This document shows, one piece after another, positions 2,780-29,479 of a stretch of 64,000 nt of DNA. The number at the start of each line of letters is the position of its first letter. The stretch's first letter is position 1. Source of the stretch: a virus. Below the pieces are notes generated by a model. The model was not told the DNA's origin. It saw only the letters and a list, made by a program, of their open reading frames with translations, and searched no databases. The DNA lies in the IMG/VR virus record IMGVR_UViG_3300033145_000849, positions 1-64,000 of that record, one strand, 5' to 3'. A program made the position numbers and the translations under genes.

Positions 2780-2782
2780 TAA

Positions 2783-3604: not shown

Positions 3605-3628
3605 TATATCCTCCATGGGGACACTTAC

Positions 3629-3656
3629 ATTGTAACAATAATACTACACTACTCAA
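3629..3656 (-). promoter_or_regulatory. sigma70-like promoter TTGAGT-N16-TACAAT with extended -10 TG
   Basis: Lies in the intergenic gap upstream of the membrane/holin genes. Same architecture as 4209-4236. Confidence 0.6.
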
Positions 3657-3689
3657 GACATAGTTCAACTATCTATAATTTAAGAAGTT

Positions 3690-4202
3690 TTAGCCAATAA
3701 GTAGGTCAATTATTATATCTGCAGCGTCCTTAGCACTGATTTTTCCAGTGTTTATAGTTAAGTCTGCAAGAACAGGCTGTTCATAAGTACCATCATATCC
3801 TGTTAAATCTTCAATCTCACCAAAGAGAGCCTTACTGTAGAGTCCTTTCGGATCTCTTTCAATTCTATCTATGAGAGGAGCATGCAGGTGTACTAAATGG
3901 CAATCAGCTATCTGTTTTATAGTGTTAATAGCAAGGTCTCTTGACTTACTGAATGGAGCTATACAAGCTACAATTACAACACAGTCCTCTAATTGTCCAG
4001 CTATGAGAGCCGCCAGAATACCTGTCCTAAAGACATGTTCGTTTCTTTCCTTGTCAGACAGACCTATGCTAGGCCATAAGCTCTTTCTAACTACATCTGA
4101 ATCAAGAATTATACAAGGGTGGGACAGTTTATGCTGGATAGCATAAGCGAGGGTAGTTTTGCCTGAAGCAGGAACGCCTGTTAGCCATACGACAGTGGAC
4201 AT
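3690..4202 (-). CDS. cysC: adenylyl-sulfate (APS) kinase
   Basis: VVWLTGVPASGKTT P-loop, ILDSDVVR, RDPKGLY, LTGYDGTYEQP. Confidence 0.92.
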   Translation of the reverse strand: MSTVVWLTGVPASGKTTLAYAIQHKLSHPCIILDSDVVRKSLWPSIGLSDKERNEHVFRTGILAALIAGQLEDCVVIVACIAPFSKSRDLAINTIKQIADCHLVHLHAPLIDRIERDPKGLYSKALFGEIEDLTGYDGTYEQPVLADLTINTGKISAKDAADIIIDLLIG

Positions 4203-4208
4203 AATTCT

Positions 4209-4236
4209 ATTGTAGCAAGAAAGGGGTGCTGCTCAA
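4209..4236 (-). promoter_or_regulatory. sigma70-like promoter TTGAGC-N16-TACAAT, probably giving a leaderless cysC mRNA
   Basis: The -10 box ends 6 nt before the cysC ATG and there is no Shine-Dalgarno. Confidence 0.55.
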
Positions 4237-5102
4237 GGGAGGGGTTTATCGCGGAGTTCTGCTGGTTCTTCTTCGGGATGAAAAATGCGGAAGTATGTCT
4301 TGTAACACTCCCTAATCTCACTACAACCATCAAACCCATCAATATCGTGGTTTCTAATCATCCAGTCCTTAAGACGCTGGTCTACATTCCCTTTAAGGAT
4401 ATATCTCTCGTAAGAATGCCACTCAGTAGGAATACCTGCCTCTCTACAGATCTCTTTAAACTCTACCCAAACAGCATTACTGTTGCCTAGGTTAGGACCT
4501 CCACCACCAATAACAAAGTTTCTCATCCCTCTATGCCAGATGATATTCTCTTGCTTGATGTGCTCATAGATAAATTCAGTGTTCATGACACGAAGGCCGC
4601 CACCTTTAGTACTAACACCTTCATGAGGATTACCATGGTACTTAAGCTCAGGTTCCCATTTGTATAATAGATGTTTCCAGTAGTTGTCTAAGCTTTCCCA
4701 TACTTTTTCTTCACCTTTTAAACTAACAGACCTACACTGGAACCCAGCAGCATTATGTCCTGTTTTCTCTACATGTTGTGCAATCTCTCTGATCTTTTTA
4801 AAGGTCTCTTCTTCAAATAGCTCGTCTGGATCAGACACTAGGATATAATCTCCAGGTTTAGCGAATTCCTTTGCTCGTAGAAGGTAGTTATTACGTTGGT
4901 CTGAGAAGTGGTCAGTCCATGGATGTAGGTAGAAGTGCAGTTTAGGTTCTTGTTGACTCCAGTTCCTAAAATAGAAAAGAGAATCGTCTACTGATCCTCC
5001 ATCTACTACAACGATATGGTCTACGTAGGGAAGTGCCCGTTCTACACACTTCTTAACTTCACTCAGTCTATTTTGAGCCATCATACAGTAAATAATTTGC
5101 AT
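4233..5102 (-). CDS. GT2-family glycosyltransferase
   Basis: IVVVDGGSVD, FSDQRN, SDPDE (DxD), PHE. Confidence 0.85.
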   Translation of the reverse strand: MQIIYCMMAQNRLSEVKKCVERALPYVDHIVVVDGGSVDDSLFYFRNWSQQEPKLHFYLHPWTDHFSDQRNNYLLRAKEFAKPGDYILVSDPDELFEEETFKKIREIAQHVEKTGHNAAGFQCRSVSLKGEEKVWESLDNYWKHLLYKWEPELKYHGNPHEGVSTKGGGLRVMNTEFIYEHIKQENIIWHRGMRNFVIGGGGPNLGNSNAVWVEFKEICREAGIPTEWHSYERYILKGNVDQRLKDWMIRNHDIDGFDGCSEIRECYKTYFRIFHPEEEPAELRDKPLP

Positions 5103-5737
5103 ATTAACTCCTTATGCTTTTTTTTTAATAAGTAAAAATTAGTTTTAAATGGATGCCATAAGAACTTACAGGATTCTGTTTCATCTGTAAAGTTAAACTT
5201 TTGAAAATACTTTAGCCAGCCTACCCTAGTAAAAGAGTAACCATCACTAGTTTCGTCTGTAAATTTATACTCATCATCAAACTGAAAAGCATTCTTCTCA
5301 GGCTCCAATGTGTTCTCTACACAAACGTAGAAACCACCTGGCTTAATTAGAGAATAGATAGTTTCAACAATTTGGTCCTTCTGAGGGTGAAGATTGTGTT
5401 GAATTACAGCTCTAGAGAAGACTACGTCAAACTGCTTGTCGATTAAGATGTTGTTCCAATCATACTGATAGAGAGCTTTAGCTTTAATACCAAATTCATC
5501 AAGCTTAACTTGGGCAGCTTCAATCATAGCTAAGTTTTGATCATAGCCATAGTAATTGAAGTCCTTAAAGGTAGGAGAGTAGAGTGCAGCTCCACAACCA
5601 TAGTCTAATACGTCAATATTAGGACTATCTATCTTGAATTTAATAGAATCAGTAATTGATTTCTCGTTAAAACCATCAAGCTCAACGAGTTCTGTTGCAT
5701 GATGATTCCAAACTTCTTGTTCTCTTCCATCAGCCAT
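5081..5737 (-). CDS. class I SAM-dependent methyltransferase
   Basis: VLDYGCGAA, FDVVFSRAVIQH, LIKPGG. Confidence 0.88.
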   Translation of the reverse strand: MADGREQEVWNHHATELVELDGFNEKSITDSIKFKIDSPNIDVLDYGCGAALYSPTFKDFNYYGYDQNLAMIEAAQVKLDEFGIKAKALYQYDWNNILIDKQFDVVFSRAVIQHNLHPQKDQIVETIYSLIKPGGFYVCVENTLEPEKNAFQFDDEYKFTDETSDGYSFTRVGWLKYFQKFNFTDETESCKFLWHPFKTNFYLLKKKHKELICKLFTV

Positions 5738-5739
5738 GG

Positions 5740-6174
5740 CTAAATCCTTATTAGTTCGTCAGTACTAGTAATGTTCCTAGTATTGAAAGGACATAGAGAC
5801 AAGAGGGTCTCATAGTCTGGAGGAGTAGATTCTGCCCATTTGTCTAGTGAATCATTTATTGCATCAACCTGATTGTCGACTTCAAACCATAAGATTGGCT
5901 CAATAAAGTCTCTGCTTAAGTACCTTCTGGCCATACAACAAGTATAGTTGGCTTTATGTCCTAAAATCTGTTTTGGGAATAAAGCACCAGAGCCCCAAGT
6001 CTGATCACCATCAGCAGTAGCTTCAATAATGCTGCCACAGACTAAAAACTTATCTTTTTCTCGAAACTTAGCACTTTCTGGAGTACTACCTGAAATGCTT
6101 TTAATAATAACAGGAGTTAACATATCTCCAAAGTTAGTATTATTATCATGCCAATAAGCTTTAACTATAGTCAT
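5740..6174 (-). pseudogene. polysaccharide pyruvyltransferase (ExoV-like), apparently internally deleted
   Basis: N-terminus (NFGDMLT, CGSII, WGSG) and C-terminus (LLSLCPF) are recognisable, but the ORF is only 144 aa and the central part is missing. Confidence 0.5.
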
Positions 6175-6180
6175 TATTTC

Positions 6181-6822
6181 CTACCAAAAAAGTTTATTTG
6201 GACGCCAATCCCAAGTCCAATTACATATATGAAAATTATTGTCTATGCAATTGATTAGTTGAGACCTGTCTTGTCTACTACCTAGGTTAACTATCTGGGT
6301 ATTATACCTGTCATTCCTAGTAAGCCATTGGTTCATAGGAATTGTAAAATGAGGCGCTTCTGCATCGTCCATTACAATAAAGTGAGAAAGCGCTGGTGAC
6401 CAAGAGTTATTGACAATATTATCTAGAAAACTACCTCTAGAACTAGCTTGAGAATCTAAGAAAATTAGATCTGGATGAGAAATTTCAGAATAGTTAAAAT
6501 CATCAGATAAATATACATTCTTATCTTCTAAGGATAAGCTACTAAGCATTTGTTTGGTTCTATCTACATATTCTTGTCCTTCCTCAATTGAAATAATGTC
6601 TTTATCATATTTACTACAAGCTGCTTGAAGAAATATGGTTGAAGCTCCTGAACCTAGTTCAAGAACTGAACGTACCTCTGGTCTTTTAACTAATTCAATT
6701 AGCATAAGAGCAGTATCTGGATAAACACCAGCACCTGAATCTAATGCAAACCAATCTATGTCTATATCCTCTTTAATACAATTATTAAATGGAGTATAGA
6801 CTTCTATGTAATTAGACATCAT
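6181..6822 (-). CDS. class I SAM methyltransferase (Methyltransf_24-like)
   Basis: VLELGSGAST, ISIEE, DLIFLDS, IVMDD. Likely start at 6822, behind a GGGG RBS. Confidence 0.75.
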   Translation of the reverse strand: MMSNYIEVYTPFNNCIKEDIDIDWFALDSGAGVYPDTALMLIELVKRPEVRSVLELGSGASTIFLQAACSKYDKDIISIEEGQEYVDRTKQMLSSLSLEDKNVYLSDDFNYSEISHPDLIFLDSQASSRGSFLDNIVNNSWSPALSHFIVMDDAEAPHFTIPMNQWLTRNDRYNTQIVNLGSRQDRSQLINCIDNNFHICNWTWDWRPNKLFW

Positions 6823-7420
6823 AAGGTCCCCTTTTGTATCTTGCTGGATTGCCTGCATAGAGAGATTTTTTTGTAAGAAGATCTTCATTGACTGAAGAAC
6901 CGCCAGCGATAATAATATCACTACCTATAGAAACATCAGGAATGACAGAGGTTCCTACTCCAACTAATGTTCCAGCTCCTACAGATACATTTCCGCAGAG
7001 ATGTACCCCGGGAGCAATATGCACAAAACTACCGATATTACAATCATGGTCCACTGTAGCTCCAGTATTAATAATGGCTCCCTCACCTACAATTGCTCTA
7101 GTATGTACTACTGCCATAGGACCAACAAAGGATCCTGAAGAAACACAAGAACGATGAGCAACATAAGCTTGTGGGGAAATAATAGCTGGGAAATGATATC
7201 CTTTTTGCTTTAGCTTAGCAGTTATCTTTTCCCTAGTTTTATTGTCTCCAACGCCTACGAAAGCAAGGTATTCTTTGGGAGGAAAAAGGTCTATCCAGGT
7301 ATCGTCTTTTACTCTTGGGTCATTATCGTCTATCCATTGAGAAGCAAATTTTAATCTTGTCCAAACATCCTTGACAACAGCTGCATGACCACCTGTTCCC
7401 CATATTAAAAGCTTAGGCAT
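6812..7420 (-). CDS. NeuD/PglD/PerB-type sugar acetyltransferase (left-handed beta-helix)
   Basis: LIWGTGGHA, VGVGDNKTR, INTGATVDHDC, hexapeptide repeats, GNPAR. Start MPKLL at 7420. Confidence 0.92.
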   Translation of the reverse strand: MPKLLIWGTGGHAAVVKDVWTRLKFASQWIDDNDPRVKDDTWIDLFPPKEYLAFVGVGDNKTREKITAKLKQKGYHFPAIISPQAYVAHRSCVSSGSFVGPMAVVHTRAIVGEGAIINTGATVDHDCNIGSFVHIAPGVHLCGNVSVGAGTLVGVGTSVIPDVSIGSDIIIAGGSSVNEDLLTKKSLYAGNPARYKRGPYDV

Positions 7421-8438
7421 TAATAATCTCCGCAATTCTATGTATGTCATCAGTTGTTACTTGTGAATGACAAGGCAAGCAAATGCTATGTGTGTACAAA
7501 AAAGTACTATTATTAGAATCATCCAAAGGATAATAATACTGTAGAGCTTCAATTCCTTCTTCTCTAAGTGTTAAGACCTTTCTCTTTGCTTCTATCTCAT
7601 ATGGTAAATAAATAGGTAAACAAGAATAGACAGTATTCTTTATAGTGGAAAGGGTGTGAACTTCTGAACATAATTCCTTGTATAGAGCAACGTTCTTTTG
7701 TCGTGCTATAAAATATGGAATTATCTTGTCCATAAGAGAGAGCCCAATTGCACAAGTGTAATCGCTAACCTTGCCATTACATCCAGGGCCTTGTATTTTC
7801 TTGTTCTTGCCTAGTCCAAAGTTGATGTATTGCCTTATAGAGCTGTCTAGTCCCTTGTTGTAGATTACACAGCCTCCTTCGCCTATAGGGAGGTTTTTAG
7901 TTCCATGGAAGGATAAGCAGTAGGCATCTCCCAAATTAAAATGAGGACCTAGTGTACCAAATGTAGCAGCACCATCAATAACTAGCTTCTTATTGTTTTT
8001 TTTGCACCATATGGAAATATCAATTAGTTTATCTATAGGTATTGAGGAAAGAGGACATACTGCTGTGACAGTGTCCACTTCTTCCTTGTGTTTCTCTAGA
8101 GTATCTAGGGAGAATGTGCCAGTGGCTAGTTCTACGTCAGCAACAATAGTTTTTATACCTTGTAATGTTGCTGCTTGTTGAGTAGCTGCAAAGGTGTAAG
8201 AAGGAACAAGGGTGCTTTTGGTCCCTAAAGAATGAAAGGCCGTCATTAGTGCGGTTGTTCCTGATGAAACAATAGACAAGTCTTTGTCTTCTGATATAGC
8301 GAGATAGCTAATGAGTCGATCATGAAATTGCCAATATAATGGTCCGAAATTAGATACTTGAGCATCTTTGCTGTTGGAGAAGAGTTCTTTCATCTCGGCA
8401 AAGTCCGGGAGGACTACTTCACAAAACTTAACTGCCAT
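7413..8438 (-). CDS. DegT/DnrJ PLP sugar aminotransferase (VioA-like)
   Basis: SNFGP, SSGTTAL, PSYTFAAT, IDGAA, SFHGTKNLPIGEGG, LPCH. Start at 8438. Confidence 0.9.
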   Translation of the reverse strand: MAVKFCEVVLPDFAEMKELFSNSKDAQVSNFGPLYWQFHDRLISYLAISEDKDLSIVSSGTTALMTAFHSLGTKSTLVPSYTFAATQQAATLQGIKTIVADVELATGTFSLDTLEKHKEEVDTVTAVCPLSSIPIDKLIDISIWCKKNNKKLVIDGAATFGTLGPHFNLGDAYCLSFHGTKNLPIGEGGCVIYNKGLDSSIRQYINFGLGKNKKIQGPGCNGKVSDYTCAIGLSLMDKIIPYFIARQKNVALYKELCSEVHTLSTIKNTVYSCLPIYLPYEIEAKRKVLTLREEGIEALQYYYPLDDSNNSTFLYTHSICLPCHSQVTTDDIHRIAEIINA

Positions 8439-8439
8439 C

Positions 8440-9681
8440 TTATTTCCTTGTCCCCCTTTTTCGTGGATCAAATCCGGTGATAGACACGAACAATTCAAAA
8501 TTCCTCTTATACTCATTAAGGATGTCTTCCCTGGTTAATGTTGGTGTAGACACAAAGCATTTGTCTATGCTCTTGGCTTTAGTCACTGCTTCGTCCCAAT
8601 CGTAATCATATATAGTGATAAGATCTTCAAAAGCAGGATCTGTTCTAACAGGAGCATCTGGAAATGGAAAGAAAATATTGTATCCAAAGGCTTCGGGTCG
8701 GGCTTGTTCCATCCATTCTTGAGTCTTTCTGATAGTTTCTCTAGTCTCACCAGGCAATCCTACTATAAGCATAGCGTTACACTTGATACCAATCTCTCTA
8801 CACATATGAGCAAACTTGATATTTTCTTGGACATTAGTTCCCTTACGAATAAGGTCAAGGATTTTTTGACTGCCAGATTCTACCCCAATAGCTACTTCTA
8901 AACAACCAGATTCAGCCATAAGTTCTAAGTCTTCCCTATTAAGAACATTGACACGACCATAAGATCGCCACTTTATATTTAATTCTTTAACACCCTTCAA
9001 TATCTCACGAAAGCGGGGTCTATTTATAGACATAGTGTCATCTACAAACATGAAACTATCAAACCCATACTGATTCTTAAGGATTTGTAACTCCAAGATG
9101 ACATTCTCAGGAGATCTTTGTCTTAACTTGGTCCCAGCAGTAGAACAAAAGGCACATCGATACGGACAACCTCTAGAGGTCATTACATTAATACATTTAA
9201 GGTCCCTTCTAAGAGGAAAGTTGTAAGCTTGCATGTTTAGCTTAGAGAAGAAGAGAGGATGTAGCTCGTCTAAGTCCTCAATAGGCTTACCTTGAACTAC
9301 TCTGGTACTAACATTTCTATCTATAATCTCCAGAAGAACCCGCTCGCCTTCTCCAACAACCAAATAGTCCCAGTCATCCTTTAGGCATTCCTGAACACAA
9401 GACTCGGTATTAAGATGAGGTCCTCCAAGAACAACTCTAGCCTGGGGAGCTATTTTTCTAATTCGATGAAGGGCTTCTCTGGCTATAGGATACTGATTAG
9501 TCGTAGCAGAGACACCATACACAGCATAGTTATTAGGGATGTCTTCTACTCTTTTGTGAAGGATATCAGTCTGAACAGAGGGGGTTAGATAGGAAGCTAT
9601 AGACAATACTCCAGTAGGAATAAACTCATACTGAGCTAAAGCAAAATCATCTACTGGTACAAAAAGAAGAAGGTCTTTCAT
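8440..9681 (-). CDS. B12-binding radical SAM protein (class B methyltransferase-like)
   Basis: VLGGPH, VVGEGE, TSRGCPYRCAFC, FVDD, IGVESGSQKIL, IVGLPGET. Confidence 0.92.
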   Translation of the reverse strand: MKDLLLFVPVDDFALAQYEFIPTGVLSIASYLTPSVQTDILHKRVEDIPNNYAVYGVSATTNQYPIAREALHRIRKIAPQARVVLGGPHLNTESCVQECLKDDWDYLVVGEGERVLLEIIDRNVSTRVVQGKPIEDLDELHPLFFSKLNMQAYNFPLRRDLKCINVMTSRGCPYRCAFCSTAGTKLRQRSPENVILELQILKNQYGFDSFMFVDDTMSINRPRFREILKGVKELNIKWRSYGRVNVLNREDLELMAESGCLEVAIGVESGSQKILDLIRKGTNVQENIKFAHMCREIGIKCNAMLIVGLPGETRETIRKTQEWMEQARPEAFGYNIFFPFPDAPVRTDPAFEDLITIYDYDWDEAVTKAKSIDKCFVSTPTLTREDILNEYKRNFELFVSITGFDPRKRGTRK

Positions 9682-9682
9682 C

Positions 9683-10726
9683 TTACTCCATAAAGTCAAC
9701 TAGTTGTTGGAAATACTTACGCGAATTATAGTAGAGATGACCCTCTAATGCTGCTTGGTATTCAGACACAAGATAACCATAGAACTCCCTGTCTGTTACC
9801 AGTCTGTCTAGGTTCCCTTGAATTGCTTCATACGAAGCGTCATGTGAGAGTAGAAAATCATACCTTGTTGCTATGTCGTCAAATAGAGATCCGGACCAAG
9901 TTAAAGGAATGATTCCTCTCATGACTCCTTCAATCATACTTCCTCCAGGACTAATTACTGGAGTAAGAACCTTGGTAATATCTAGTATTTTATAGATAGC
10001 ATCCATTTTAATCAAAGGGAAAAACTGTGCATTGTTAATAGACTTTAAGAGATCTACAAGCTGAAGATTTTCAACTGCTTTAACTTTATTGTCTGTTAAT
10101 TCATGAGCCATGAGAAAGATGGAATTAAGACTATGTTTTTCTGAAACTTCTTTAATAGCCTTCAGAACATTATGACCTGCAGTAAACCAGTGTTCTTCAT
10201 TGGGAGAATGTCTATCTAGAAAAACATCCTTAGCTGAAAAGGTAAGGGTCTTGTTATCGAAAGAGCCTTCTCTAAAGCTATCAGCTAATGGAACTGGAAG
10301 ACAGAAGGTTTTATGTTGAAAGATGTTTCTATCATGAATAAAGTTCTTCTTAGATTGTACATATGGATAGGCAATAACATGATTTTTCCCAATCATTGAC
10401 TCTTTTGTTAAGTGATCTTCAAATCCATAAGATAGATGTACATACGTTTTTGCTGTAATGTCCCCTATGTCTTTTCCTTCCCACCAACAACAGTTAACAT
10501 ATACATCACAATCAATATGAGAGGTGTCTGACCAGGGTCGTAAAGTACAGTTAGGAATAGGAGCAGACTGTCCCCATAGAGCTGGATTGCAAATACAAAT
10601 AACCTCGTGGCCTTCCTTTGCTAAAAACTCAGCCCAGTTCTGAGCCCACCTACTCTCTCCCCTTTCTGGAGACTCTAGGCCTTCATAGATAGAACCTGGG
10701 ATATCAAAAACAATTCGTAATGGCAT
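9683..10726 (-). CDS. divergent GT-B-like glycosyltransferase (paralog family member 1)
   Basis: RGESRW, LAKEGHEV, GGSMIEGVMRGIIP, LDRLVTDREFY. These motifs are shared with 16828 and 18008. Confidence 0.6.
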   Translation of the reverse strand: MPLRIVFDIPGSIYEGLESPERGESRWAQNWAEFLAKEGHEVICICNPALWGQSAPIPNCTLRPWSDTSHIDCDVYVNCCWWEGKDIGDITAKTYVHLSYGFEDHLTKESMIGKNHVIAYPYVQSKKNFIHDRNIFQHKTFCLPVPLADSFREGSFDNKTLTFSAKDVFLDRHSPNEEHWFTAGHNVLKAIKEVSEKHSLNSIFLMAHELTDNKVKAVENLQLVDLLKSINNAQFFPLIKMDAIYKILDITKVLTPVISPGGSMIEGVMRGIIPLTWSGSLFDDIATRYDFLLSHDASYEAIQGNLDRLVTDREFYGYLVSEYQAALEGHLYYNSRKYFQQLVDFME

Positions 10727-10743
10727 ATTAAATCCTGTTTCCT

Positions 10744-11625: not shown

Positions 11626-12191
11626 TATAGCTCTCTTAATTTGTTATCAAAAACTTGATAGTATTTGTCGCAAAAAAGACATGCCCAGCGAGGGCCTTCT
11701 GTCCAGAGCTGCTTGCCACAGGAACACATCCATTTAGAAAATCTAGCAGGATTGCCAACTACTAGAGCATAGTCTGGAACATCATGGGTTACAACAGATC
11801 CTGCACCAATGAAAGAATACTGTCCAATCTCTACCCCACAGATGATAGTAGCATTAGCTCCAATAGTAGCACCTTTGCGTACAATAGTCTTTTTAAATTC
11901 TTTCTTACGACTGATTTCACTACGAGGATTGATTACATTAGTAAACACCATAGAAGGACCACAAAATACATCGTCTTCTATAGTAACTCCTTCATAAACT
12001 GAAACGTTATTCTGAATCTTTACGTTGTTACCTATGGTTACATTAGGCCCAGCCATTACATTCTGGCCTAGAGTACATCCTTCTCCAATGGTAGTATTGT
12101 GTAATATATGGCAGAAATGCCAGATAGAAGTTTTATCACCAATACTAGCAGGGTCGTCGTCAATTATTGATGTTGGATGAACATAAGCCAT
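11625..12191 (-). CDS. wbpD: WbpD/WlbB-type N-acetyltransferase
   Basis: [44 protein letters not shown]-terminal Cys cluster. Confidence 0.88.
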
Positions 12192-12194
12192 TAA

Positions 12195-13730: not shown

Positions 13731-13731
13731 G

Positions 13732-15851: not shown

Positions 15852-15852
15852 G

Positions 15853-16818: not shown

Positions 16819-16827
16819 GACTTACTC

Positions 16828-19105: not shown

Positions 19106-19116
19106 AGATAGTTCCT

Positions 19117-21161: not shown

Positions 21162-21162
21162 C

Positions 21163-22134: not shown

Positions 22135-22145
22135 AAACTACTCCA

Positions 22146-22856
22146 TTAAATTAAGCTGTGATATTTAGAAAGATTCATGGTCAAATCTGGTCTCAAAAAA
22201 GAAAGGTTTAGATCTGATAAAGTGATTTTATTAACATTAGGTTTAGTTAATCTAGCTAAATCGTAGATTGATTTAGGTTTTGTACCTATATTATATACCC
22301 CACTAGGAGGACGTAAGTCAATAAAGTTTTTCAAAAGCTTAGCAATCACATCTACTCTATCTGCATTTGTAATTACATCTGTAAAAGCATTTTCATGTGG
22401 GAAAGGATTAGCTTTAAAAGAAGTTCGAAGTATACGTATGTTTCCCTTATTGTTAGTTAGCAACAATGTGTCGCCAACTGCTTTGCTATACCCATAGTTG
22501 TTGAAAGGTTTTAATAAATCTGTTTCTAAAGACGAAGGAGAATCGCCACTATATACATAGTCTGTACTTATATGATAAATATCTACAGAAAAATCTAGCT
22601 CGGTTAGCCACTTGAGACTCCATGCATTAGTATGTAGTGCTCGCATAGGATCACTTTCCGCACCTATAACATCAACATAGGCTGCTAAGTTAATGACAGT
22701 TGAATATCCCTCATTAATATAGTCAATCATACCTTTAGTAACAGTAGTAATGTCTAAACCATCATGAGAGGGGGCCCAAACATATCTAGATTCTTCCCTA
22801 AACATAGGGACTAGATAACTACCTAGTCGTCCACTGGCTCCTGTAATCAGAATCAT
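22146..22856 (-). CDS. rmlD: dTDP-4-dehydrorhamnose reductase-like
   Basis: ITGASGRLG, NLAAYVDV, HISTDYVY, YGYSK, ILRTSF. Confidence 0.82.
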   Translation of the reverse strand: MILITGASGRLGSYLVPMFREESRYVWAPSHDGLDITTVTKGMIDYINEGYSTVINLAAYVDVIGAESDPMRALHTNAWSLKWLTELDFSVDIYHISTDYVYSGDSPSSLETDLLKPFNNYGYSKAVGDTLLLTNNKGNIRILRTSFKANPFPHENAFTDVITNADRVDVIAKLLKNFIDLRPPSGVYNIGTKPKSIYDLARLTKPNVNKITLSDLNLSFLRPDLTMNLSKYHSLI

Positions 22857-23453
22857 TTAAGGTATATCATATCCTTTAGCAGCTACAAACATCCCTGTTG
22901 GGGTAGGTACCTGCACCCATTTATACCCTAATTTCTTAAGCATGGGTACCATGTCCAAATACTTAACAGAACCTTCATTGTGGATATCGTCTACTAGAAC
23001 AAAGTGTTTATCCTTAAGCATAGGAGCAGCCATCTTGTACTCGTTGACCATATGGGTAGCATCCTCAGCTGAATCTAGACAAACGAGATCTACTTGGTCT
23101 ACGTGATGACCAACGTCTTGAATTCCCTGTACACTATCTACTTGCCACATAACAAGACTATCTGTGCTTACCTCATCATCTTTAAATAGACTATTAATCA
23201 TTTCTACTTGTGGATCAATGTCTAAACTATAGAGAAGACCTTTTTTGGGAGCACAAATATACTTAGCTATATTGTTAGTAGTATGGTGCTCAAGGGCTTC
23301 AGGTAGATAGAAATAGGTTGTTCCTGTTTCAATACAGATGGGATTGTCATCAATAACTGACCCAATATACTTACATATATCTCTAACTGTACGCCATTTT
23401 GTTAATTCATAGACTTCTGGATGATACATTCCACCCGTACATAACTCATGCAT
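22857..23453 (-). CDS. class I SAM methyltransferase-like protein
   Basis: CIETGT, LYSLDID, DLVCLDS, VLVDD. Confidence 0.7.
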   Translation of the reverse strand: MHELCTGGMYHPEVYELTKWRTVRDICKYIGSVIDDNPICIETGTTYFYLPEALEHHTTNNIAKYICAPKKGLLYSLDIDPQVEMINSLFKDDEVSTDSLVMWQVDSVQGIQDVGHHVDQVDLVCLDSAEDATHMVNEYKMAAPMLKDKHFVLVDDIHNEGSVKYLDMVPMLKKLGYKWVQVPTPTGMFVAAKGYDIP

Positions 23454-24195
23454 TATAAAACTCCTTAAGACCTGGAGGCAAAGAAAGTGTTACTACTTTA
23501 ACATCATCTATCTCTGCTCCTTCTTCAAAGTTGTTATTACTACCAAAACAATAATCTGTTAAAGGCGCGTACTCATCCTTCTCATGAAACATGGCATCTA
23601 AAACATTGATTCTATTGACCATATGTTTAGGGTTACCTACCCTAGAGCAATGATAGATTCTACATATATCATTGATAATTGTACGAGAAGGGAACATGTC
23701 ATCTGGTTTCATAAACATTCCATCTCCAACTATCTCAACCTTTTCAGTTAGAGAACACATTCTAGGAATAGGGAGAGTCCAAGACGTCTTGATGTGATTA
23801 AGATCCCGCCAGAAGTATGTCCTTTCAAGAGACAGGTTGAAGAACCTCTCTCTATATATATATCTGACGTCAAGGATTTCCCGAGGATGAACTATCTCGT
23901 CTGCTTGTAGATACAAAACACTATCAAATTTTTGATCTAAAGCTTCTTTAATACATTGATTAGCTCTAAAGGCTAAATCATGTCCCATGTTAAGCGTCCA
24001 ATCCCATACTGAATCTAGGATAGTCAGTTTTTTAGGATCAGCTAAACTTCTTAATCTAGCTAAAGTGTCGTCTCTATTGTTAAGGTCTGTAGCAACGAAG
24101 ACATGGTCACAACATGCCAACAGATTAGTAATACAAACCTCGAAAGGATAGTTAAGCTCTACACCATTAGCTACTAGGGTAGCTCCAGCTAACAT
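23446..24195 (-). CDS. GT2-like glycosyltransferase
   Basis: LNYPFEVCI, DDTL, YLQADE, IYH. Confidence 0.75.
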   Translation of the reverse strand: MLAGATLVANGVELNYPFEVCITNLLACCDHVFVATDLNNRDDTLARLRSLADPKKLTILDSVWDWTLNMGHDLAFRANQCIKEALDQKFDSVLYLQADEIVHPREILDVRYIYRERFFNLSLERTYFWRDLNHIKTSWTLPIPRMCSLTEKVEIVGDGMFMKPDDMFPSRTIINDICRIYHCSRVGNPKHMVNRINVLDAMFHEKDEYAPLTDYCFGSNNNFEEGAEIDDVKVVTLSLPPGLKEFYNA

Positions 24196-24204
24196 TTGTT
24201 CCCC

Positions 24205-24858
24205 TTATTTCATATCAATATTAGCAACAGCAGGAATCGCACGCTCTACCCCATCAGCAACATCTTGTTCGTAAAGACCTCTATAGAGCTCGTTCCTATC
24301 TTGAAGTCGCTGGTCACTCTTAAACACATCTTGGAAATGTTCTATGTGAGGACCCTTCTCGGATGTTCTAATATTTCCTTCTTTTATATTGAGTCCTTCA
24401 TGGACTCGGTTCTCGTAAGTAATGCTACCTGGATTGTTTCTAATAAATCTGTATTGCCAATCAGGATATGCGTCCTGCTCTACTTGTATGGTACGTCCTA
24501 TGTCTCTCCAACGCCTACGAGGAAGTCCCCATGCTACACATTCTGCATCATCCATAAGATCTATTAAAATTGAGAGCTCTTCAGGTGCAAGTATCTCGTC
24601 AGTATCTAGTCCTAGAATCCATGGCTGAGTAGCAAGGTGAGCTGTTAGGGTTCTAATGCTTCCAAAATCTGTGAACCCTACCTTGTATACTCTTGCTCCA
24701 AGTTCCGTTGCAATTTTAACTGTGTCATCAGTAGATCCTGTGTCTACAAGAATAATTTCAGACACCAAATGAGACACACTGTTTAAGCATAGCCATATAG
24801 AATCTTGATTGTTCTTGGCAAACACAGCTAAAGTAATAGGTAGGCCAGCACTTGTCAT
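24205..24858 (-). CDS. GT2-family glycosyltransferase
   Basis: ILVDTGSTDDT, DFGSIR, LDTDE, YPDWQYR, RVHE. Confidence 0.9.
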   Translation of the reverse strand: MTSAGLPITLAVFAKNNQDSIWLCLNSVSHLVSEIILVDTGSTDDTVKIATELGARVYKVGFTDFGSIRTLTAHLATQPWILGLDTDEILAPEELSILIDLMDDAECVAWGLPRRRWRDIGRTIQVEQDAYPDWQYRFIRNNPGSITYENRVHEGLNIKEGNIRTSEKGPHIEHFQDVFKSDQRLQDRNELYRGLYEQDVADGVERAIPAVANIDMK

Positions 24859-25982
24859 GTAGAAAAACTCTCCTTAATTTCTTTGAGACGATTGACCATT
24901 AGTTCCCCAATCTTAGTTGAATTTAGTTCGTTTCTAATGGTTGCAACAGCATTCTCTGCTTTGGTAGCTGCTAATTGTCTGTCTTCGAATACTGTTCTCA
25001 TAAGCCTCCTTAGATGCATAATGTTAGGATCAGCCCATGTCATATGACCTTTGTAATTGGGGAAGATCATACCAGCTACTGGAGTCTCTTGATAGTCAAT
25101 TAAAAAACTATTATCGTCATTCATAAACTCTAGATTACCACTGTAATTAGTAGAGATTACAGGCTTTCCGTAAGACATTGCCTCGGCGTGAGGGATACCA
25201 AATCCTTCAGCTCTGTGAGCCAAGACAAAACAATCTCCTTTCATGTGAAGACCTTTCATCTCTGCTGCTGTCATAAGGTTTCCAAAAAAGACTAGGGGAG
25301 GAAAGCCTCTGTCCATATTGAGAGACTTTTTTATCCTTGCTATATCTTCTTTAATAATAGCCTTCTCTGCTTGAGAAGTATTGACCCTGTAGGCTTTTAA
25401 GGCAAAGACAACCTTCTCGTCAGGTTTAAACTCGGTAAGATACGCTTTCATTAAAGCCATTGGATTTTTTCTTTCTAGCCATTGAAAGATAGAATAGAAA
25501 ACAAAAGTATCATCACTGATATCTATGTTAACAGGTTCAGCATCGGAAGTATCAGGTAGAGAAACAATATGAGGTATCCTATAAACAGGCTTTTTTACTC
25601 CAGAGTTTTTAAATACTTCTATGTTCCATTTTGAAGGAACCCATATTTCGTCCATCATATTACAAAGATCTATCCATTGACTAGGAAGAGTATCTGTCTC
25701 CCATGCTGTATAGGCTATGTTGTAGCATTGAGGATCTCTGTAAGTAGGAAAATTCTCTGGTGTAAGATGCACAATTTGAATTTCAGGATCTAATTTACGG
25801 TCAATGAATGGAGTAATTTTTTCTTGAAGAGTTCCATGAGATACTTTTTGGTGTTCAAAAGAAGTTACCCTAACCGTAAGATCTATGTCTTTTCTATCAA
25901 TAAGAGCTGAAATATAGTTTCTTGCAGCGGTAGCATATCCAGAAACATCCAACACCGCGCCTACGTATTTGAGTCTAATCAT
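24855..25982 (-). CDS. GT4-family glycosyltransferase
   Basis: SGYATAAR, TAWETD, ERKN, RAEGFGIPHAEAM. Confidence 0.92.
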   Translation of the reverse strand: MIRLKYVGAVLDVSGYATAARNYISALIDRKDIDLTVRVTSFEHQKVSHGTLQEKITPFIDRKLDPEIQIVHLTPENFPTYRDPQCYNIAYTAWETDTLPSQWIDLCNMMDEIWVPSKWNIEVFKNSGVKKPVYRIPHIVSLPDTSDAEPVNIDISDDTFVFYSIFQWLERKNPMALMKAYLTEFKPDEKVVFALKAYRVNTSQAEKAIIKEDIARIKKSLNMDRGFPPLVFFGNLMTAAEMKGLHMKGDCFVLAHRAEGFGIPHAEAMSYGKPVISTNYSGNLEFMNDDNSFLIDYQETPVAGMIFPNYKGHMTWADPNIMHLRRLMRTVFEDRQLAATKAENAVATIRNELNSTKIGELMVNRLKEIKESFST

Positions 25983-27343
25983 AATACTTCCCCTTCTGAA
26001 GATGTTTTAAAAGCAATCTTGGGATTAGCATTTTGAATTTCTGCAAAAAGCTTAACCCATTTCTTACAAATGTTATTCCAAGAATATTTGTTGGTAAACT
26101 TAGTGGCTCTCCCAATGATCTCTTGTCTTTGGGTAGAGCTATTAACCCTATCGGCTTGCCAATCTTGATGGCACTGTACCATAGTATCTACAATATCTTC
26201 TATTCTACCTGTCCGTCTAAAACCAGAGTTATCTACAAAACTCATTTCATGACAAGGATATACATATCCCCTGTTTCTGTTTCCACCTACTAGCTCTGGA
26301 GTAGTAGTATTGTTAGGAACAATAACAGGTATACCAGCTGCCATGGCTTCTACGATTGTAAGACCAAATCCCTCTCCAAGATGAGTGGTCATATATGCAT
26401 CTCCACAATTGTACAGCTTGTTTAAAATAGAAGTGGTATAGCCAAGAGCTGCGTTGTAGTTAGTAGGAAAGAGTACATCTGTTTTAGGGTTTAGTCCTAG
26501 TTCCTCAAGACAGATTTTCAAGTCTATAAGGTGACCACTGTTTGAACCATCTTTAGTTACAGTGTGTAGATAAAGAAGAGAATCGGGAACTTGCTTACGA
26601 AACTCAGAGAAAGCAAAGATTGTTTTAGCTATGTCTTTTCTTAAACTATTTCGATTCACATTGACTATAACAAAAGTGTCATCACTCTTGAGACCTAAAT
26701 ATTCTTTTCTGTATTTAGTTTTTGCTTCCTGTCCAATAGGTTTAAAGTTTTTTATATCAGATCCATGATAGATAACGTCTGTAGGATGAACATCAACAGC
26801 TTCGCTAGCAGTTTTAGCAAAATTAGTATAAGCAACTGAACGGTCTGCTATTTTGATCATGTTAGAAGCAGCAGAAAGAAGCCTACAATCAACAGGATAA
26901 TAATAAATCAGTTTGAAAACTGGGCGCTTGGCTTGATGTTTAGCTTGTCGAACCTTATTGATATGGTGACTTATTTGTTCAACTACAAAGGTATCATTGA
27001 CAACAAAGACAATATCGTAATCCTTTTTTCTTAAGGCATCTATAAACATTTGGTTTCCAAAAGCATCTTTAGGATTTCCTAGTTTGGAAGGTACGATACA
27101 GTAGGGAATTTTATTCTTGTCGTAAAAATCACCAAAATAGTTAATAGCTAGTTGATCGATTTCATATAGTCCTGTCCTGTAAAGAGCATTTAGGATGTGT
27201 TTAGATACTACCCCAAAGCCTGTTGTTGCTGTAACACTGTCGCTCCATACTAATACTTTTTGCTTTCTTCGAGGCCTAGTGCTACTTAAGGGAGGTAACT
27301 TAAGAGAGTTAGTAGGTTGCATTATTAAACTATTGGATGCCAT
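25979..27343 (-). CDS. GT4-family glycosyltransferase
   Basis: TTGFGVV, NRNSLRKD, GEGFGLTIVEAMAAGIP. Confidence 0.92.
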   Translation of the reverse strand: MASNSLIMQPTNSLKLPPLSSTRPRRKQKVLVWSDSVTATTGFGVVSKHILNALYRTGLYEIDQLAINYFGDFYDKNKIPYCIVPSKLGNPKDAFGNQMFIDALRKKDYDIVFVVNDTFVVEQISHHINKVRQAKHQAKRPVFKLIYYYPVDCRLLSAASNMIKIADRSVAYTNFAKTASEAVDVHPTDVIYHGSDIKNFKPIGQEAKTKYRKEYLGLKSDDTFVIVNVNRNSLRKDIAKTIFAFSEFRKQVPDSLLYLHTVTKDGSNSGHLIDLKICLEELGLNPKTDVLFPTNYNAALGYTTSILNKLYNCGDAYMTTHLGEGFGLTIVEAMAAGIPVIVPNNTTTPELVGGNRNRGYVYPCHEMSFVDNSGFRRTGRIEDIVDTMVQCHQDWQADRVNSSTQRQEIIGRATKFTNKYSWNNICKKWVKLFAEIQNANPKIAFKTSSEGEVL

Positions 27344-27352
27344 TAAGATTTC

Positions 27353-29479
27353 CTATAAGACTTCGTATCGTTTTTCTTTTACTGCTTCCTTAAAGAAGTT
27401 AACAAGGTGAGGGTCTGAAGGTAGAAGCTCATCGTTTAGCATTGCTTCTATCGTGTCTATCGTCAAATCAACTTCTAGTCTTTTCCAGCAAGTATGACTC
27501 ACTTTGCAAGGCTGGTACCAACAATCCCAAGTAGCTAAATTACTTATAGTAAAAGTAGTATCTTTATCTACAGTGATATCATAAACATATTCATCCTTTC
27601 TTGATGATATTTCTATTTTAGAAATAGGAGTATAAATAAAATTGTCATCAGCTAATGATCGACTAAAGTCTTTGTCTTCTGATACATATATTCTATAGAT
27701 TATAGAATTCTTTTTGAAATTAGTATCTCTAACCCTTTTGTAAACATGTACATATTTACCGAACCTAGTATAAATCTCTTGAAGGCCATAAGCAATCTGT
27801 TTTGAAGCGGTAGAATAAACTCTATTTTTTTTATCCCTATATCCATCACCTTCAAAATATCCATCTAGAAAGGCTTCTAAGTCTTCATCTTTACATCTGA
27901 AATAACAAGTAGGAATTTTTTTAGTTGGAGCACGAGTTTTAATCCCGAATAAAGCTTTTATCTCATTAAACAAAGCCTTATTAGAAACTTTAACCACTAA
28001 AGAATTCCCTTTACTATTTTTTTCTACCTGAAAAACATGGATGTCAAAAGCTTTAGCTAGAACATTTCGGATATCTTTCAATAATTCTTGTTCATCTCCG
28101 CCAATAGTTAAAATAGTTTCATAACCCCGAGAATTTGCAGTAGGTCCTTTTAAATATCCTTCAGCCATATATAACCCATGAAACCAACATCTTTCCTTAC
28201 GGAAATCCTCTTTAAAGGGTAAGTTTTCAACAAATTTATTCCGAGGAATACATAAAAAATCTCTTTCTTTTAATTCCTTTGCTGGAATCCATTCTGGATT
28301 TGTTTCATATTTACTTGACCTAAAAACATCCATATACTGTAAGCTAGCTAACATTTTATGATCTTCTGTAATAGTAATAGGTTCATTCTTGCCTACAACA
28401 GTAATGTCATACAGCTCTCTGTCTCTTCTAAGATTTTTATGGAGTTTAGTTACTTTATGTAGCTGTCCTGATTGAGTTTTTACATTATCTCCTATTTGAA
28501 TGTCTTTAATCTCTTTGTATCCATCATGAGTTAATACAAAACTTTCTTCTACCACACAAGGACTGCAAGATAAGTCTTGCCCTGCCCAGATAGCAACAGC
28601 TTCTGGATAGTAATTGATTCTAGCGTTGGGGTCTGTAGGGCCAAAGAGCGACACTGTCTTCTTTCCTAATGCTCCAGCTAAGTGGAGTATAGACGAATCA
28701 GGACACAAGACTAGATCACAAAAGTTCATAACTGCAGTAATCTTTCTAACGTCCCAATCTCTGAGTTCTAAGATGTCTGCAAATCCCCACTCTGTTGTAT
28801 AGTTGTCTGAACCATGAGTAAAGACAATAGCTTTGAGATCTCGTCTCTTCATTAACAGTTGAGCTAAAACTTTCTGAATTGTTTCAGTTGGAGCATCTCT
28901 TTGACTAGCACTAGAGAAAGGTTGTACTAGTATGATCTTACGCTTTCCTATCTGTGATTCTTCAATCATTTGCTGTGCAGCCTCAAGCTCTCCTGGTTGA
29001 AAAGCATAGTCTAAAGTAACGTCTTTCAGAGGAAAGACTCCAGCATGCTTAGCAAACAAATCTATTCTATTAACAGGAACTGCATGAGGTTTCTCGTGGT
29101 ACACACAAGGACAAGTCAAGTCTATTACACCATCATAATCCGATGTTTGAATCTCCCGCCAGGGAATGACATTTTTAATATCTGGATGCCCATACAGAAC
29201 TTTTGGTAAAGCTCCTTCCAGGTATTCAAAATCTGTACCATAGTCTATAGATATCTTATATTTATTAGCAATCGCTTTCACAGTAGGTAGAGTCATTAGT
29301 ACATCGCCCATTCCACCTTGTGTTCTGGTAATTGCAATCTTTGGTGCTTGGCCTATACGAAGACCATCTATTCTTTTTAAAATTTGAGAAGGTTGACTAT
29401 ACAGAGATGCAGTAATGTTGGGAATTGTTTGCTTTGTTGGCACCAATATCCCACGTCTATTCGGTTTCAATATTCTCAT
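27353..29479 (-). CDS. GT9 (heptosyltransferase-like) glycosyltransferase containing an intein
   Basis: GGMGDVLMTLP, PDSSILHLAGA, LFGPTDP. The C-terminal CSPC..C..C motif is split by the intein. Spliced product about 363 aa. Confidence 0.92.
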   Translation of the reverse strand: MRILKPNRRGILVPTKQTIPNITASLYSQPSQILKRIDGLRIGQAPKIAITRTQGGMGDVLMTLPTVKAIANKYKISIDYGTDFEYLEGALPKVLYGHPDIKNVIPWREIQTSDYDGVIDLTCPCVYHEKPHAVPVNRIDLFAKHAGVFPLKDVTLDYAFQPGELEAAQQMIEESQIGKRKIILVQPFSSASQRDAPTETIQKVLAQLLMKRRDLKAIVFTHGSDNYTTEWGFADILELRDWDVRKITAVMNFCDLVLCPDSSILHLAGALGKKTVSLFGPTDPNARINYYPEAVAIWAGQDLSCSPCVVEESFVLTHDGYKEIKDIQIGDNVKTQSGQLHKVTKLHKNLRRDRELYDITVVGKNEPITITEDHKMLASLQYMDVFRSSKYETNPEWIPAKELKERDFLCIPRNKFVENLPFKEDFRKERCWFHGLYMAEGYLKGPTANSRGYETILTIGGDEQELLKDIRNVLAKAFDIHVFQVEKNSKGNSLVVKVSNKALFNEIKALFGIKTRAPTKKIPTCYFRCKDEDLEAFLDGYFEGDGYRDKKNRVYSTASKQIAYGLQEIYTRFGKYVHVYKRVRDTNFKKNSIIYRIYVSEDKDFSRSLADDNFIYTPISKIEISSRKDEYVYDITVDKDTTFTISNLATWDCWYQPCKVSHTCWKRLEVDLTIDTIEAMLNDELLPSDPHLVNFFKEAVKEKRYEVL
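27524..28558 (-). mobile_element. intein with LAGLIDADG homing endonuclease (345 aa)
   Basis: Block A CVVEESFVLT, block B ITEDHKML, LAGLIDADG motifs FHGLYMAEG and FLDGYFEGDG, block F VYDITV. Ends ...NLATWD before a +1 Cys. Visibly AT-richer than its flanks. Confidence 0.92.

Follow-up and report, generated by a model that had tools for sequence, protein, structure and literature searches.

Large sets of glycosyltransferase (GT) and sugar genes in big phages are established, and so is glycosylation of the virion in some actinobacteriophages. The virion O-glycosylation cassettes of mycobacteriophages comprise about three GTs and one methyltransferase (MTase), with no sugar-tailoring pathway (PMC11600133, PMC13313380, PMC12619734), and their glycans are placed in the cytoplasm on capsid and tail-tube proteins (PMC11600133). 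Among the cyanomyoviruses, 22 genes for nucleoside-diphosphate (NDP) sugar enzymes and 13 GTs are reported for S-SCSM2R, with S-SCSM1 and P-SSM2 considered likewise; these genes are scattered, include KdsA/KdsB and PgaA-like envelope genes, and were interpreted as modifying the host surface, the target being left unresolved there (PMC12801897). Here we describe a glycan-building gene cluster (the island) at positions 3690-29479 of a 64,000-nucleotide stretch of virus DNA (the window), which is the first 64 kb of one 128,266-bp contig, IMGVR_UViG_3300033145_000849, a linear virus record in IMG/VR-style metadata with no terminal repeat. Judged from its sequence, the island is the largest version seen here of a hypervariable, consistently soluble gene block, led by a family 9 GT (GT9) and anchored at the end of the tail-fibre module; the lineage-wide combination of a conserved GT9-led core with a variable cassette appears to be new.

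Like the mycobacteriophage cassettes, the island places soluble phage GTs and a methyltransferase by structural genes, with lipid-carrier and export genes absent, but it has 28 genes and about ten GT domains, includes sugar tailoring, and has an acceptor that is only predicted. With the cyanomyoviruses it shares a large phage genome, many GTs and NDP-sugar enzymes, whereas its genes are contiguous, lying in a single operon-like array that includes a conserved GT9 core. In the flagellin and pilin glycosylation islands (Caulobacter FlmG, PMC7591256), soluble PseC/PseH/PglD-type enzymes and GTs likewise modify an exported structural protein in the cytoplasm, although those islands are cellular and no Maf- or FlmG-type transferase was identified in the phage island. 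Assembly of the lipopolysaccharide (LPS) core by the waa genes also uses soluble GT9 and GT4 enzymes without its own initiating phosphoglycosyl transferase (PGT) or flippase; unlike waa, the island carries no genes for Kdo or heptose synthesis, and a profile of four phage GT9 homologues reached only 25-39 bits against solved GT9 enzymes in the PDB (best matches 3tov, WaaC and WaaF). Flagellin and pilin islands are hypervariable, and the fibril glycans of Megavirinae and capsid glycans of chloroviruses contain virus-encoded rare bacterial-type amino sugars (viosamine, bacillosamine-like) built with soluble GTs from clade-variable clusters; these are eukaryotic viruses, with structural proteins unrelated to those of this phage. 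A literature search (supplements excluded) found no GT9-led island of this lineage, no such core-plus-variable layout and no comparable contiguous phage cluster.

A cultured analogue is Flavobacterium phage vB_FspM_immuto (160 kb), whose 13-gene soluble glycan island (gp181-gp169, NC_055915.1 49172-59988) resembles the present one in having GTs, two aminotransferases, a PglD-like protein, an epimerase and an MTase. It adjoins an endolysin, a holin and a PD-(D/E)XK nuclease, and includes a GT with 25% identity to GT4b, the second family 4 GT of our island. It differs in having no GT9 match and in its separation from the fibres. The major capsid protein (MCP) of immuto is not among the eight tblastn matches of the MCP described below, so immuto is not a demonstrable relative; a literature search on it returned nothing relevant.

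The minus strand of the contig holds all large genes from ~109 kb down to base 1. In the order of transcription they start with the large terminase subunit (TerL, with an intein), portal, MCP and sheath, and continue with three giant proteins, of which one carries an M23 peptidase domain, then baseplate J and a long series of fibre and virion proteins. Next come a volactin-like actin homologue, the glycan island, an XhlA-like protein and a holin, and after these a Cas4-like PD-(D/E)XK nuclease and a primase-helicase running past the contig end. In tblastn the MCP matched only eight phage records from six distinct phages, at 33-37% identity, namely Bacillus phage 0305phi8-36 with its relatives, Moorella MTATph1 and Acinetobacter ME3. 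Given this similarity to 0305phi8-36-type phages, the contig is classed by its proteins as a distant member of that jumbo-myovirus group, and a cellular chromosome is excluded. The viral origin assumed in the original prediction, for which terminase and capsid genes were to be sought, is confirmed by TerL and MCP. Megablast of the cluster against phage records gave zero matches, and the cellular relatives of GT9 and DegT (19-43% identity in the best segment, many bacterial and archaeal phyla) permit no inference of the host.

Between 3690 and 29479 the open reading frame (ORF) listing contains 28 minus-strand ORFs, separated by at most 30 bp and overlapping or abutting at 14 of 28 junctions, with a GC content (0.35-0.41) equal to that of the rest of the window. 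The island begins 18 bp past the volactin gene, itself placed after the fibre genes. Co-orientation and tight coupling were thus as originally predicted, with one gene more than the 27 then counted. The cluster had also been placed inside a structural region; the phage context is borne out by baseplate J, the fibre and virion proteins, sheath, MCP, portal and TerL, but the island sits at the boundary of the fibre module with the lysis and replication genes, not strictly within the structural block. The inventory comprises eight firm and two tentative GT domains (Pfam and structure search), matching the approximately ten first proposed, three DegT aminotransferases, and four acetyltransferase domains (two of left-handed beta-helix (LbH) type, one GNAT, one AAC(3)-fold). 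WbpB and WbpD homologues, a B12 radical SAM enzyme and CysC were likewise recovered with Pfam, NCBIfam and the PDB. The RmlC/RmlD/4,6-dehydratase set and further short-chain dehydrogenases/reductases (SDRs) correspond to an RmlC/FdtA-like cupin, a short RmlD-like SDR, two 4,6-dehydratase-like SDRs and one further SDR. Two of the three methyltransferases claimed were retained, the third being only a weak candidate.

No protein of the island appears to span the membrane more than once. By the Kyte-Doolittle method (19-mer hydrophobic segments), which is crude, each of the 28 ORFs has at most one hydrophobic segment, in agreement with the earlier statement that no multi-transmembrane protein is encoded. 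The same holds for the claimed absence of Wzx/Wzy or ABC exporters, an initiating PGT and a nucleotidyltransferase: a six-frame hidden Markov model (HMM) search of the full 128-kb contig was negative for NTP_transferase, Bac_transf, Glycos_transf_4, Polysacc_synt, ABC_tran and Wzy_C. Initiating PGTs (PF02397, PF00953) are found in none of 22 lineage records, this contig and two complete genomes included, in a search whose controls were positive in 9 and 12 of 14 genomes. PF01943 and PF00005 are each absent from the 22 records and PF04932 (Wzy_C) from the five records searched, and no ORF with at least four hydrophobic segments occurs among 26 viral GT9 loci. With no PGT, flippase, polymerase or exporter found, the island appears unlike a Wzx/Wzy- or ABC-transporter-dependent O-antigen or capsule locus.

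Related islands were compared in an IMG/VR lineage set of 44 loci, with MCPs 45-83% identical to that of this contig. Homologues of the GT domain of GT9 occur in 6 of 44 records, and three further records match the intein only. Volactin is present in four of five long relatives (44-60% identity), and in all four the gene directly after it is GT9, with the same order in G021 and G027. Both GT4 genes follow GT9 in G004, G005, G021 and G027, at 39-58% identity overall (GT4a 39-58%, GT4b 42-55%). Beyond this core the content differs completely among relatives. The variable genes of G021 encode a nucleotidyltransferase, SDRs, a DegT and three Methyltransf_24 proteins, those of G004 an ATP-grasp enzyme, a TylF-type MTase, a DegT and several MTases, and those of G005 Gmd and a sulfotransferase. 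In G003 a GT9-GT2 fusion is accompanied by a TylF-type MTase and a sulfotransferase, and the island of the complete G001 (194.6 kb) is limited to a tandem GT9 with three MTases and a pyruvyl transferase; in G002 (complete, 170 kb) volactin, GT9, GT1, GT2 and DegT are all without a match. It is because the GT9 core is shared and the downstream genes vary that the window cluster can be regarded as the largest version seen here of a lineage-wide island. In G004 (L049:3037-14531), the place between island and Cas4-like gene where this phage has its lysis genes is taken by two giant ORFs of 2407 and 1419 aa, neither with a Pfam match.

A GT9 profile search yielded the 26 viral loci, four of which are records already examined. 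Nine loci (group A) have the order fibre genes, volactin in some, GT9, GT4a, GT4b and variable genes, with volactin directly upstream of GT9 in six of the nine and missing there in three, as it is in the group-B loci examined. In two others (group C), one or two GT9 genes and an MTase come immediately after the fibre genes. In ~10 loci (group B), a tandem GT9 island is co-oriented with the primase side, two of them ending facing convergent fibre genes; group-B islands encode a pyruvyl-transferase-MTase fusion, sulfotransferases, Gmd and DegT. Five loci are unclear (L195, L197, L198, L187, L188), the last two having a group-B-like gene order, yet no GT9 ORF labelled by phmmer. The synteny comparison advised in the original prediction thus supports anchoring at the fibre end in group A (9 of 26 loci), in the two group-C loci and, by an island end that faces convergent fibre genes, in two of the ~10 group-B loci.

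The closest cellular relatives of GT9 are just 19-28% identical to it, and the GC content of the island matches that of the phage; the core GTs are therefore regarded as old phage genes, which suits a phage-encoded acceptor. For DegT (13732-14928 as query), the closest cellular relatives share 29-43% identity with it and come from many different phyla. Residues ~308-647 of the GT9 match the Pfam families LAGLIDADG_3, Intein_splicing and Hint_2. Alleles without this insert in G021 and G005 (365 and 361 aa) align across it, and the insert occupies an identical conserved GT9 site in this phage, G004 and G027. By its Hint and LAGLIDADG domains and the uninterrupted alleles the insert is an intein, although its C-terminus in the alignment reads ...TWD before CWY in both intein-bearing alleles and not the canonical, usual His-Asn (HN). 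Inteins typically occupy conserved sites of important proteins, and the intein-bearing, conserved GT9 core marks a gene that the phage evidently cannot easily lose. Four genes on the contig contain inteins: GT9, a 1690-aa protein (72607-77679), TerL (97917-100997) and a 588-aa protein (104915-106681). A ThyX with its own LAGLIDADG intein is encoded at L183:4908-7718, three genes upstream of a group-B GT9 island; the phmmer label of this ThyX as GT9 was rejected, being due to the shared intein and not to GT homology.

The island most likely glycosylates the phage's own virion proteins in the cytoplasm, a reading to which we give slightly less than an even chance on circumstantial evidence. The most likely acceptors, decorated before lysis, would be the tail fibres and/or a head-associated Ig-domain protein. 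This reading is favoured because carrier and export functions are absent across the lineage, including two complete genomes, because the island keeps to the fibre-module end (the group-A order in 9 of 26 loci, GT9 directly after the fibres in two more, and an island end facing convergent fibre genes in two group-B loci), because the core GTs have long been resident in phages, and because homologues of GT4a sit in head, neck and packaging modules of small phages. The latter, in Pontimonas phage phiPsal1, Synechococcus phage S-CBS4 and Tetrasphaera phage TJE1, are 28-31% identical to GT4a with coverage up to 92%. They are arranged as MCP, GT4, MTase, GT2, neck in phiPsal1 and as portal, GT4, GalT, MTase, then protease and MCP in S-CBS4, and the TJE1 copy lies upstream of the terminase. 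Each of these GT4a homologues has a methyltransferase as neighbour, joined in phiPsal1 and S-CBS4 by a second GT; unlike the island, the GT4-MTase(-GT2) cassettes have 2-6 genes and no GT9. The mycobacteriophage GTs that modify capsid and tail tube have the same layout (PMC11600133). GT4b matched 144 phage records in tblastn, mostly of Streptomyces phages. The complete, island-bearing G001 has no ThyA homologue, which is counted for the same reading. The Ig-domain protein (Big_5, 593 aa; contig 85212-86993) is encoded between MCP and sheath and has a 30-residue linker with 67% Ser/Thr; nowhere else on the contig is there a strongly Ser/Thr-rich tract. G021, a relative with a large island, retains such a tract and G001 and G002 do not, which gives a weak lead from four genomes.

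Several observations weigh against virion proteins as the target. The acceptor is predicted from circumstantial evidence, and the contig is about 54% complete (CheckV). GT9 and GT4 are classic soluble LPS-core and glycolipid families, so a host envelope target is compatible with solubility; 3tov, WaaC and WaaF are the best PDB matches of the GT9 profile, and WaaG is among the fold matches. Other matches of the GT-A and GT-B folds are TarS, TarM, PimA and a glycolipid synthase, all of them enzymes that lack transmembrane segments and whose acceptors are lipid-linked or in the membrane. In the ~10 group-B loci the island shares the orientation of the primase side and converges with the fibre genes, and the argument from a late structural operon therefore fails lineage-wide. 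The comparable island of immuto sits 35 kb from the fibres. Ten GT domains contrast with the three tandem GT genes described for glycosylated phage virions (PMC11600133), and tblastn of the island's GT9, GT4a, GT4b and GT2 against 50,697 phage records (E <= 1e-3) gave no match in a Mycobacterium phage and so no sign of homology to the mycobacteriophage GTs. The original proposal of a glycan on virion proteins is thus supported in part, by the inventory, the missing carrier and export genes and the fibre-end anchoring, and is opposed by the envelope-type GT families and the group-B orientation.

The same GT families raise the possibility, which we consider rather unlikely, that soluble GT9 and GT4 extend a host lipid-linked envelope acceptor at the cytoplasmic face, with host machinery exporting the product. 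The acceptor would be lipid A-core or lipooligosaccharide, a glycolipid or lipoteichoic acid anchor, or a teichoic acid or O-unit linked to undecaprenyl phosphate, and the effect would be to hide the receptor of the fibres, so that superinfection is prevented or progeny are not lost to cell debris. Enzymes of the waa and Tar pathways need no transmembrane segment, PGT or flippase of their own. Here GT9 belongs to the LPS heptosyltransferase family with its top PDB matches, the GT4 and GT-A folds resemble WaaG, PimA, TarS and TarM, and NCBIfam shows weak matches to monoglucosyl-diacylglycerol synthase. Closeness to receptor-binding fibres could reflect receptor-linked co-evolution, the hypervariable content is like that of serotype loci, and the large GT sets of cyanomyoviruses were published with this interpretation (PMC12801897). 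Set against this are the low identity of the core GTs to their cellular homologues, their stability in the lineage, and the relatives of GT4a in head modules of phages of Actinobacteria and cyanobacteria, hosts with fundamentally different envelopes. The array is also contiguous with structural genes and ends at the lysis cassette, leaving little time for export before lysis if it is expressed late, as we infer.

DNA, already named as the less likely acceptor in the original prediction, is in our view a very improbable target, in which case the GTs would build oligosaccharides on a hydroxylated or hydroxymethylated base of the phage DNA to evade restriction. The phage DNA glycan clusters (Pyle et al., preprint; Lee et al. 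2026) likewise have GTs recruited from LPS and teichoic-acid families, some with sugar-modifying enzymes, and such GTs attach mono- to trisaccharides including heptose to 5-hydroxymethylcytosine from clusters that can adjoin structural genes (bioRxiv 10.1101/2023.12.21.572611). The island region abuts the Cas4-like nuclease and primase, group-B islands are co-oriented with these, and a ThyX gene lies close upstream of the L183 island. ThyX is an ordinary dTMP synthase, however. The known routes require a ThyA homologue or 5mYOX, mostly clustered with the GT (bioRxiv 10.1101/2023.12.21.572611), and neither was found in island-bearing members of this lineage. The search for base-hydroxymethylase or TET genes proposed earlier gave PF00303 (ThyA) in 1 of 22 lineage records, the island-less G002, and not in the complete G001 or on this 54%-complete contig, whereas Tet_JBP (PF12851) in 0 of 22 records is a weak negative, since control genomes were equally silent. 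Ten GT domains and several rare amino-sugar branches also exceed what mono- to trisaccharides would call for (10.1101/2023.12.21.572611).

We regard as improbable a non-virion protein target (cytoplasmic proteins of host or phage, the neighbouring actin-like protein among them) or a free glycoconjugate, such as a soluble or secreted oligosaccharide or an aminoglycoside-like compound. Aminoglycoside pathways, too, typically contain AAC(3)-fold, B12 radical SAM and DegT enzymes, the GT2 and GT-A proteins are weakly like the peptide glycosyltransferases SunS and ThuS, and volactin is a conserved neighbour of the island. That neighbour is nevertheless missing upstream of GT9 in three of the nine group-A loci and from the group-B loci examined, ten GT domains suggest an oligo- or polysaccharide over a small molecule, an exporter is absent, and core enzymes of the aminoglycoside scaffold were not seen in the Pfam results.

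Under the favoured virion-protein reading, the pathway would be supplied with host nucleotide sugars, proposed as the feed because the contig has no nucleotidyltransferase, and at least three tailoring branches would act on them. In the first, a 4,6-dehydratase would be followed by the cupin, DegT and GNAT, with the RmlD-like reductase and an O-methyltransferase; in the second, the other dehydratase/SDR pair by DegT and the AAC(3)-fold acetyltransferase; in the third, WbpB by DegT and WbpD, yielding a 2,3-diacetamido sugar. The PglD-like acetyltransferase and the B12 radical SAM C-methylase may also take part. The conserved GT9-GT4-GT4 trio would then attach an inner glycan to the acceptor, as many as seven other GT domains would lengthen that glycan, and methyl groups and possibly sulfate, from 3'-phosphoadenosine 5'-phosphosulfate (PAPS) made by CysC, would cap it. 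What the island encodes, that its products are soluble, its setting in a phage genome and its conserved and variable parts in the lineage are shown by the data, and the order of these steps is deduced. The sugar identities, namely three amino-sugar branches, a WbpB/WbpD-type 2,3-diacetamido sugar and O- and C-methylation, are inferred from family-level matches. WbpB and WbpD members of the WbpA/B/E/D/I pathway for UDP-2,3-diacetamido sugars are both present by PDB matches; no WbpA-type UDP-sugar 6-dehydrogenase or WbpI-type 2-epimerase family is among the Pfam matches of the 28 proteins, and any of the three DegT genes may be the partner of WbpB. The cupin (20721-21161) gives weak PDB matches to the C-domain of Cap5F, a dTDP sugar isomerase and RmlC.

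As to the possibly sulfated glycan first proposed, CysC is present, and the adenosine 5'-phosphosulfate (APS) kinase gene occurs in this contig alone among the 22 lineage records. A sulfotransferase was not found on the contig with PF03567, phmmer, tblastn with the relatives' enzymes or a PAPS-loop motif, though four related islands (G003, G005, L184, L190) carry one. Because of these, sulfation of the lineage's glycans is plausible, this phage showing only the PAPS-forming kinase.

Five GTs are visible to Pfam (GT9, two GT4, two GT2) and three more come from structure; the six island proteins without a Pfam match were examined by fold prediction, structure search or weak-profile search. Foldseek placed SunS/ThuS first for the 23446-24195 protein (E 2e-8, TM-score ~0.5), followed by other GT-A enzymes, and homologues of this protein are present in G004 and G003. 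For 18008-19105 the matches are MshA, PimA and BshA (E ~1e-9, TM-score 0.54-0.59); its GT-B assignment rests on this fold search, because hhalign of the family against the two core GT4 families gave merely 18% and 5% probability. The Atlas structure of 9683-10726 has TM-scores of 0.69-0.76 to GT4 clusters, many of them viral, and residues 1-270 of the 12195-13730 protein score 0.55-0.63 to GT2 clusters, a lead only. With phmmer against the PDB, the 9683, 18008 and 23446 proteins gave nothing meaningful. The GT2 at 24205-24858 weakly matches the NCBIfam model of the SunS peptide S-glycosyltransferase (E 2.7e-7, far under the cut-off) and, in tblastn, SPbeta yolJ. Affinity of GT9 to TibC/BAHT was not seen, none of eight PDB matches (E <= 1) being named TibC, whose structures are presumably in the PDB. 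The coordinates and assignments are collected in Table 1.

Table 1. Genes of the glycan island, in order of transcription, and neighbouring features of the window.
Feature	Position	Strand	Evidence or remark
GT9 glycosyltransferase with LAGLIDADG intein; first island gene, lineage-wide core	27353-29479	-	Glyco_transf_9 56.4 bits (cut-off 22)
GT4a, conserved core	25979-27343	-	Pfam Glycos_transf_1
GT4b, conserved core	24855-25982	-	Pfam Glycos_transf_1
Small soluble GT2	24205-24858	-	Pfam Glycos_transf_2, 53 bits
GT-A-fold glycosyltransferase, no Pfam match	23446-24195	-	AlphaFold2 (AF2) model pLDDT 89.2 and Foldseek
Methyltransferase (Methyltransf_24/CmcI-like)	22857-23453	-	Pfam 25.8 bits, below cut-off 26.3
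Short RmlD-like SDR	22146-22856	-	RmlD_sub_bind 80.9 bits (residues 2-147); TIGR01214 81 bits, below cut-off
NDP-hexose 4,6-dehydratase-like SDR	21163-22134	-	TIGR01181 176 bits vs equivalog cut-off 365; G004 homologue 69% identical
Cupin, 3,5-epimerase or 3,4-ketoisomerase type	20721-21161	-	Pfam Polysacc_synt_C, dTDP_sugar_isom, FdtA
GNAT N-acetyltransferase, PseH-like	20207-20728	-	Acetyltransf_3/1; TIGR03585 74.6 bits vs cut-off 93.1
DegT sugar aminotransferase, first of three	19117-20223	-	Pfam 255.9 bits
GT-B-fold (GT4-like) glycosyltransferase, no Pfam match	18008-19105	-	AF2 model pLDDT 88.8 and Foldseek
Probable GT-B glycosyltransferase, tentative	16828-18015	-	Weak: Glyco_trans_1_4 E 0.12; PDB 2jjm/3mbo E 0.009
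Second 4,6-dehydratase-like SDR	15853-16818	-	Pfam Epimerase 193.7 bits; TIGR01181 177.6 bits, below cut-off
SDR epimerase/reductase	14916-15851	-	Pfam Epimerase 101 bits
DegT aminotransferase, second of three	13732-14928	-	Pfam 311 bits
Two-domain protein: GT-A-like N-domain (tentative) and AAC(3)-fold N-acetyltransferase	12195-13730	-	Antibiotic_NAT 158 bits, residues 284-486
WbpD/WlbB-like LbH 3-N-acetyltransferase	11625-12191	-	PDB 3mqg, E 7.2e-66
WbpB-like 3-dehydrogenase (GFO/IDH/MocA)	10744-11625	-	PDB 3oa2 (E 1.6e-84) and 3o9z, E ~1e-84
GT4-like GT-B glycosyltransferase	9683-10726	-	Atlas feature score 0.97; Pfam E 0.039 only
B12-binding radical SAM enzyme, likely C-methyltransferase	8440-9699	-	Pfam Radical_SAM and B12-binding; sub-threshold HpnJ-/PhpK-type models
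DegT aminotransferase, third of three, most divergent	7413-8516	-	Pfam 117 bits
NeuD/PglB/VioB-family LbH sugar N-acetyltransferase	6812-7450	-	TIGR03570 176.3 bits (cut-off 160.8); Pfam PglD_N and Hexapep
Protein without assigned family, possibly methyltransferase	6181-6921	-	Pfam hints at E 0.05-0.2 only
144-aa protein	5740-6174	-	Neither Pfam nor NCBIfam match
Class I SAM methyltransferase	5081-5737	-	Pfam Methyltransf_31/25/12/11; homologue in G004
GT2 glycosyltransferase	4233-5102	-	Pfam 43.8 bits; 55% identical homologue at far end of G004 island
APS kinase (CysC), last island gene	3690-4202	-	Pfam 126 bits; TIGR00455 136.5 bits vs cut-off 138.7
Baseplate J	59291-60517		Context of island
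Tail-fibre and virion-protein module, candidate acceptors	30553-59286	-	PHROG virion structural families; F5/8-C, Laminin_G_3, FG-GAP, Big_1 domains
Volactin-like actin homologue, upstream neighbour of GT9	29498-30553	-	Pfam PF25216, E 1.9e-52
XhlA-like protein and holin, downstream island boundary	2955-3616	-	PHROG hemolysin and holin matches; hydrophobic segments

The 144-aa protein was considered as a truncated pyruvyl transferase, a candidate dropped when BLASTP against the pyruvyl transferases of related islands was not significant. Counts from a promoter and terminator scan of positions 1-20000 were not above those in shuffled sequence. The holin of the lysis cassette has two transmembrane segments; no stand-alone endolysin is recognisable on the 128-kb contig, where the sole muralytic domain seen is the M23 domain within a 2081-aa protein (61728-67973). 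In the fibre region, the products of 51388-52323, 52323-53231 and 55791-56702 share near-identical C-termini (...AQ(V/I)LESY.RVRG), and a second paralogue set (53244-55787 and 56715-57653) ends in ...GLDIINELLSV.PMYWG; both sets look like duplicated fibre or adaptor modules.

In general, the pattern of conserved core and variable cassette, together with the cultured analogues, makes the question of the acceptor testable, with immuto as a tractable model. Should the host envelope or DNA be the target, the island would still represent a large, previously undescribed phage investment in glycan chemistry. If the virion is the target, the phage particles would carry complex, diversifying glycans far beyond those of the few-GT actinobacteriophage cassettes, with a bearing on adsorption, environmental stickiness, evasion of recognition by hosts and grazers, and the antigenicity of therapeutic phages, and the soluble GTs and rare amino-sugar pathways would offer a compact, carrier-free toolkit for cytoplasmic protein glycoengineering. 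It is conceivable, although we would not call it probable, that the island is a virion serotype locus shared by a whole lineage of large environmental myoviruses, in which a GT9-GT4-GT4 primer module placed after the fibre genes and a freely exchangeable cassette for rare sugars, methyl, pyruvyl and sulfate groups would build, wholly in the cytoplasm, an elaborate, strain-specific capped heteroglycan on fibre or head-decoration proteins. If true, this would be for phages what O-antigen diversity is for bacteria, and no glycosylation system of greater complexity would have been described for a prokaryotic virus.

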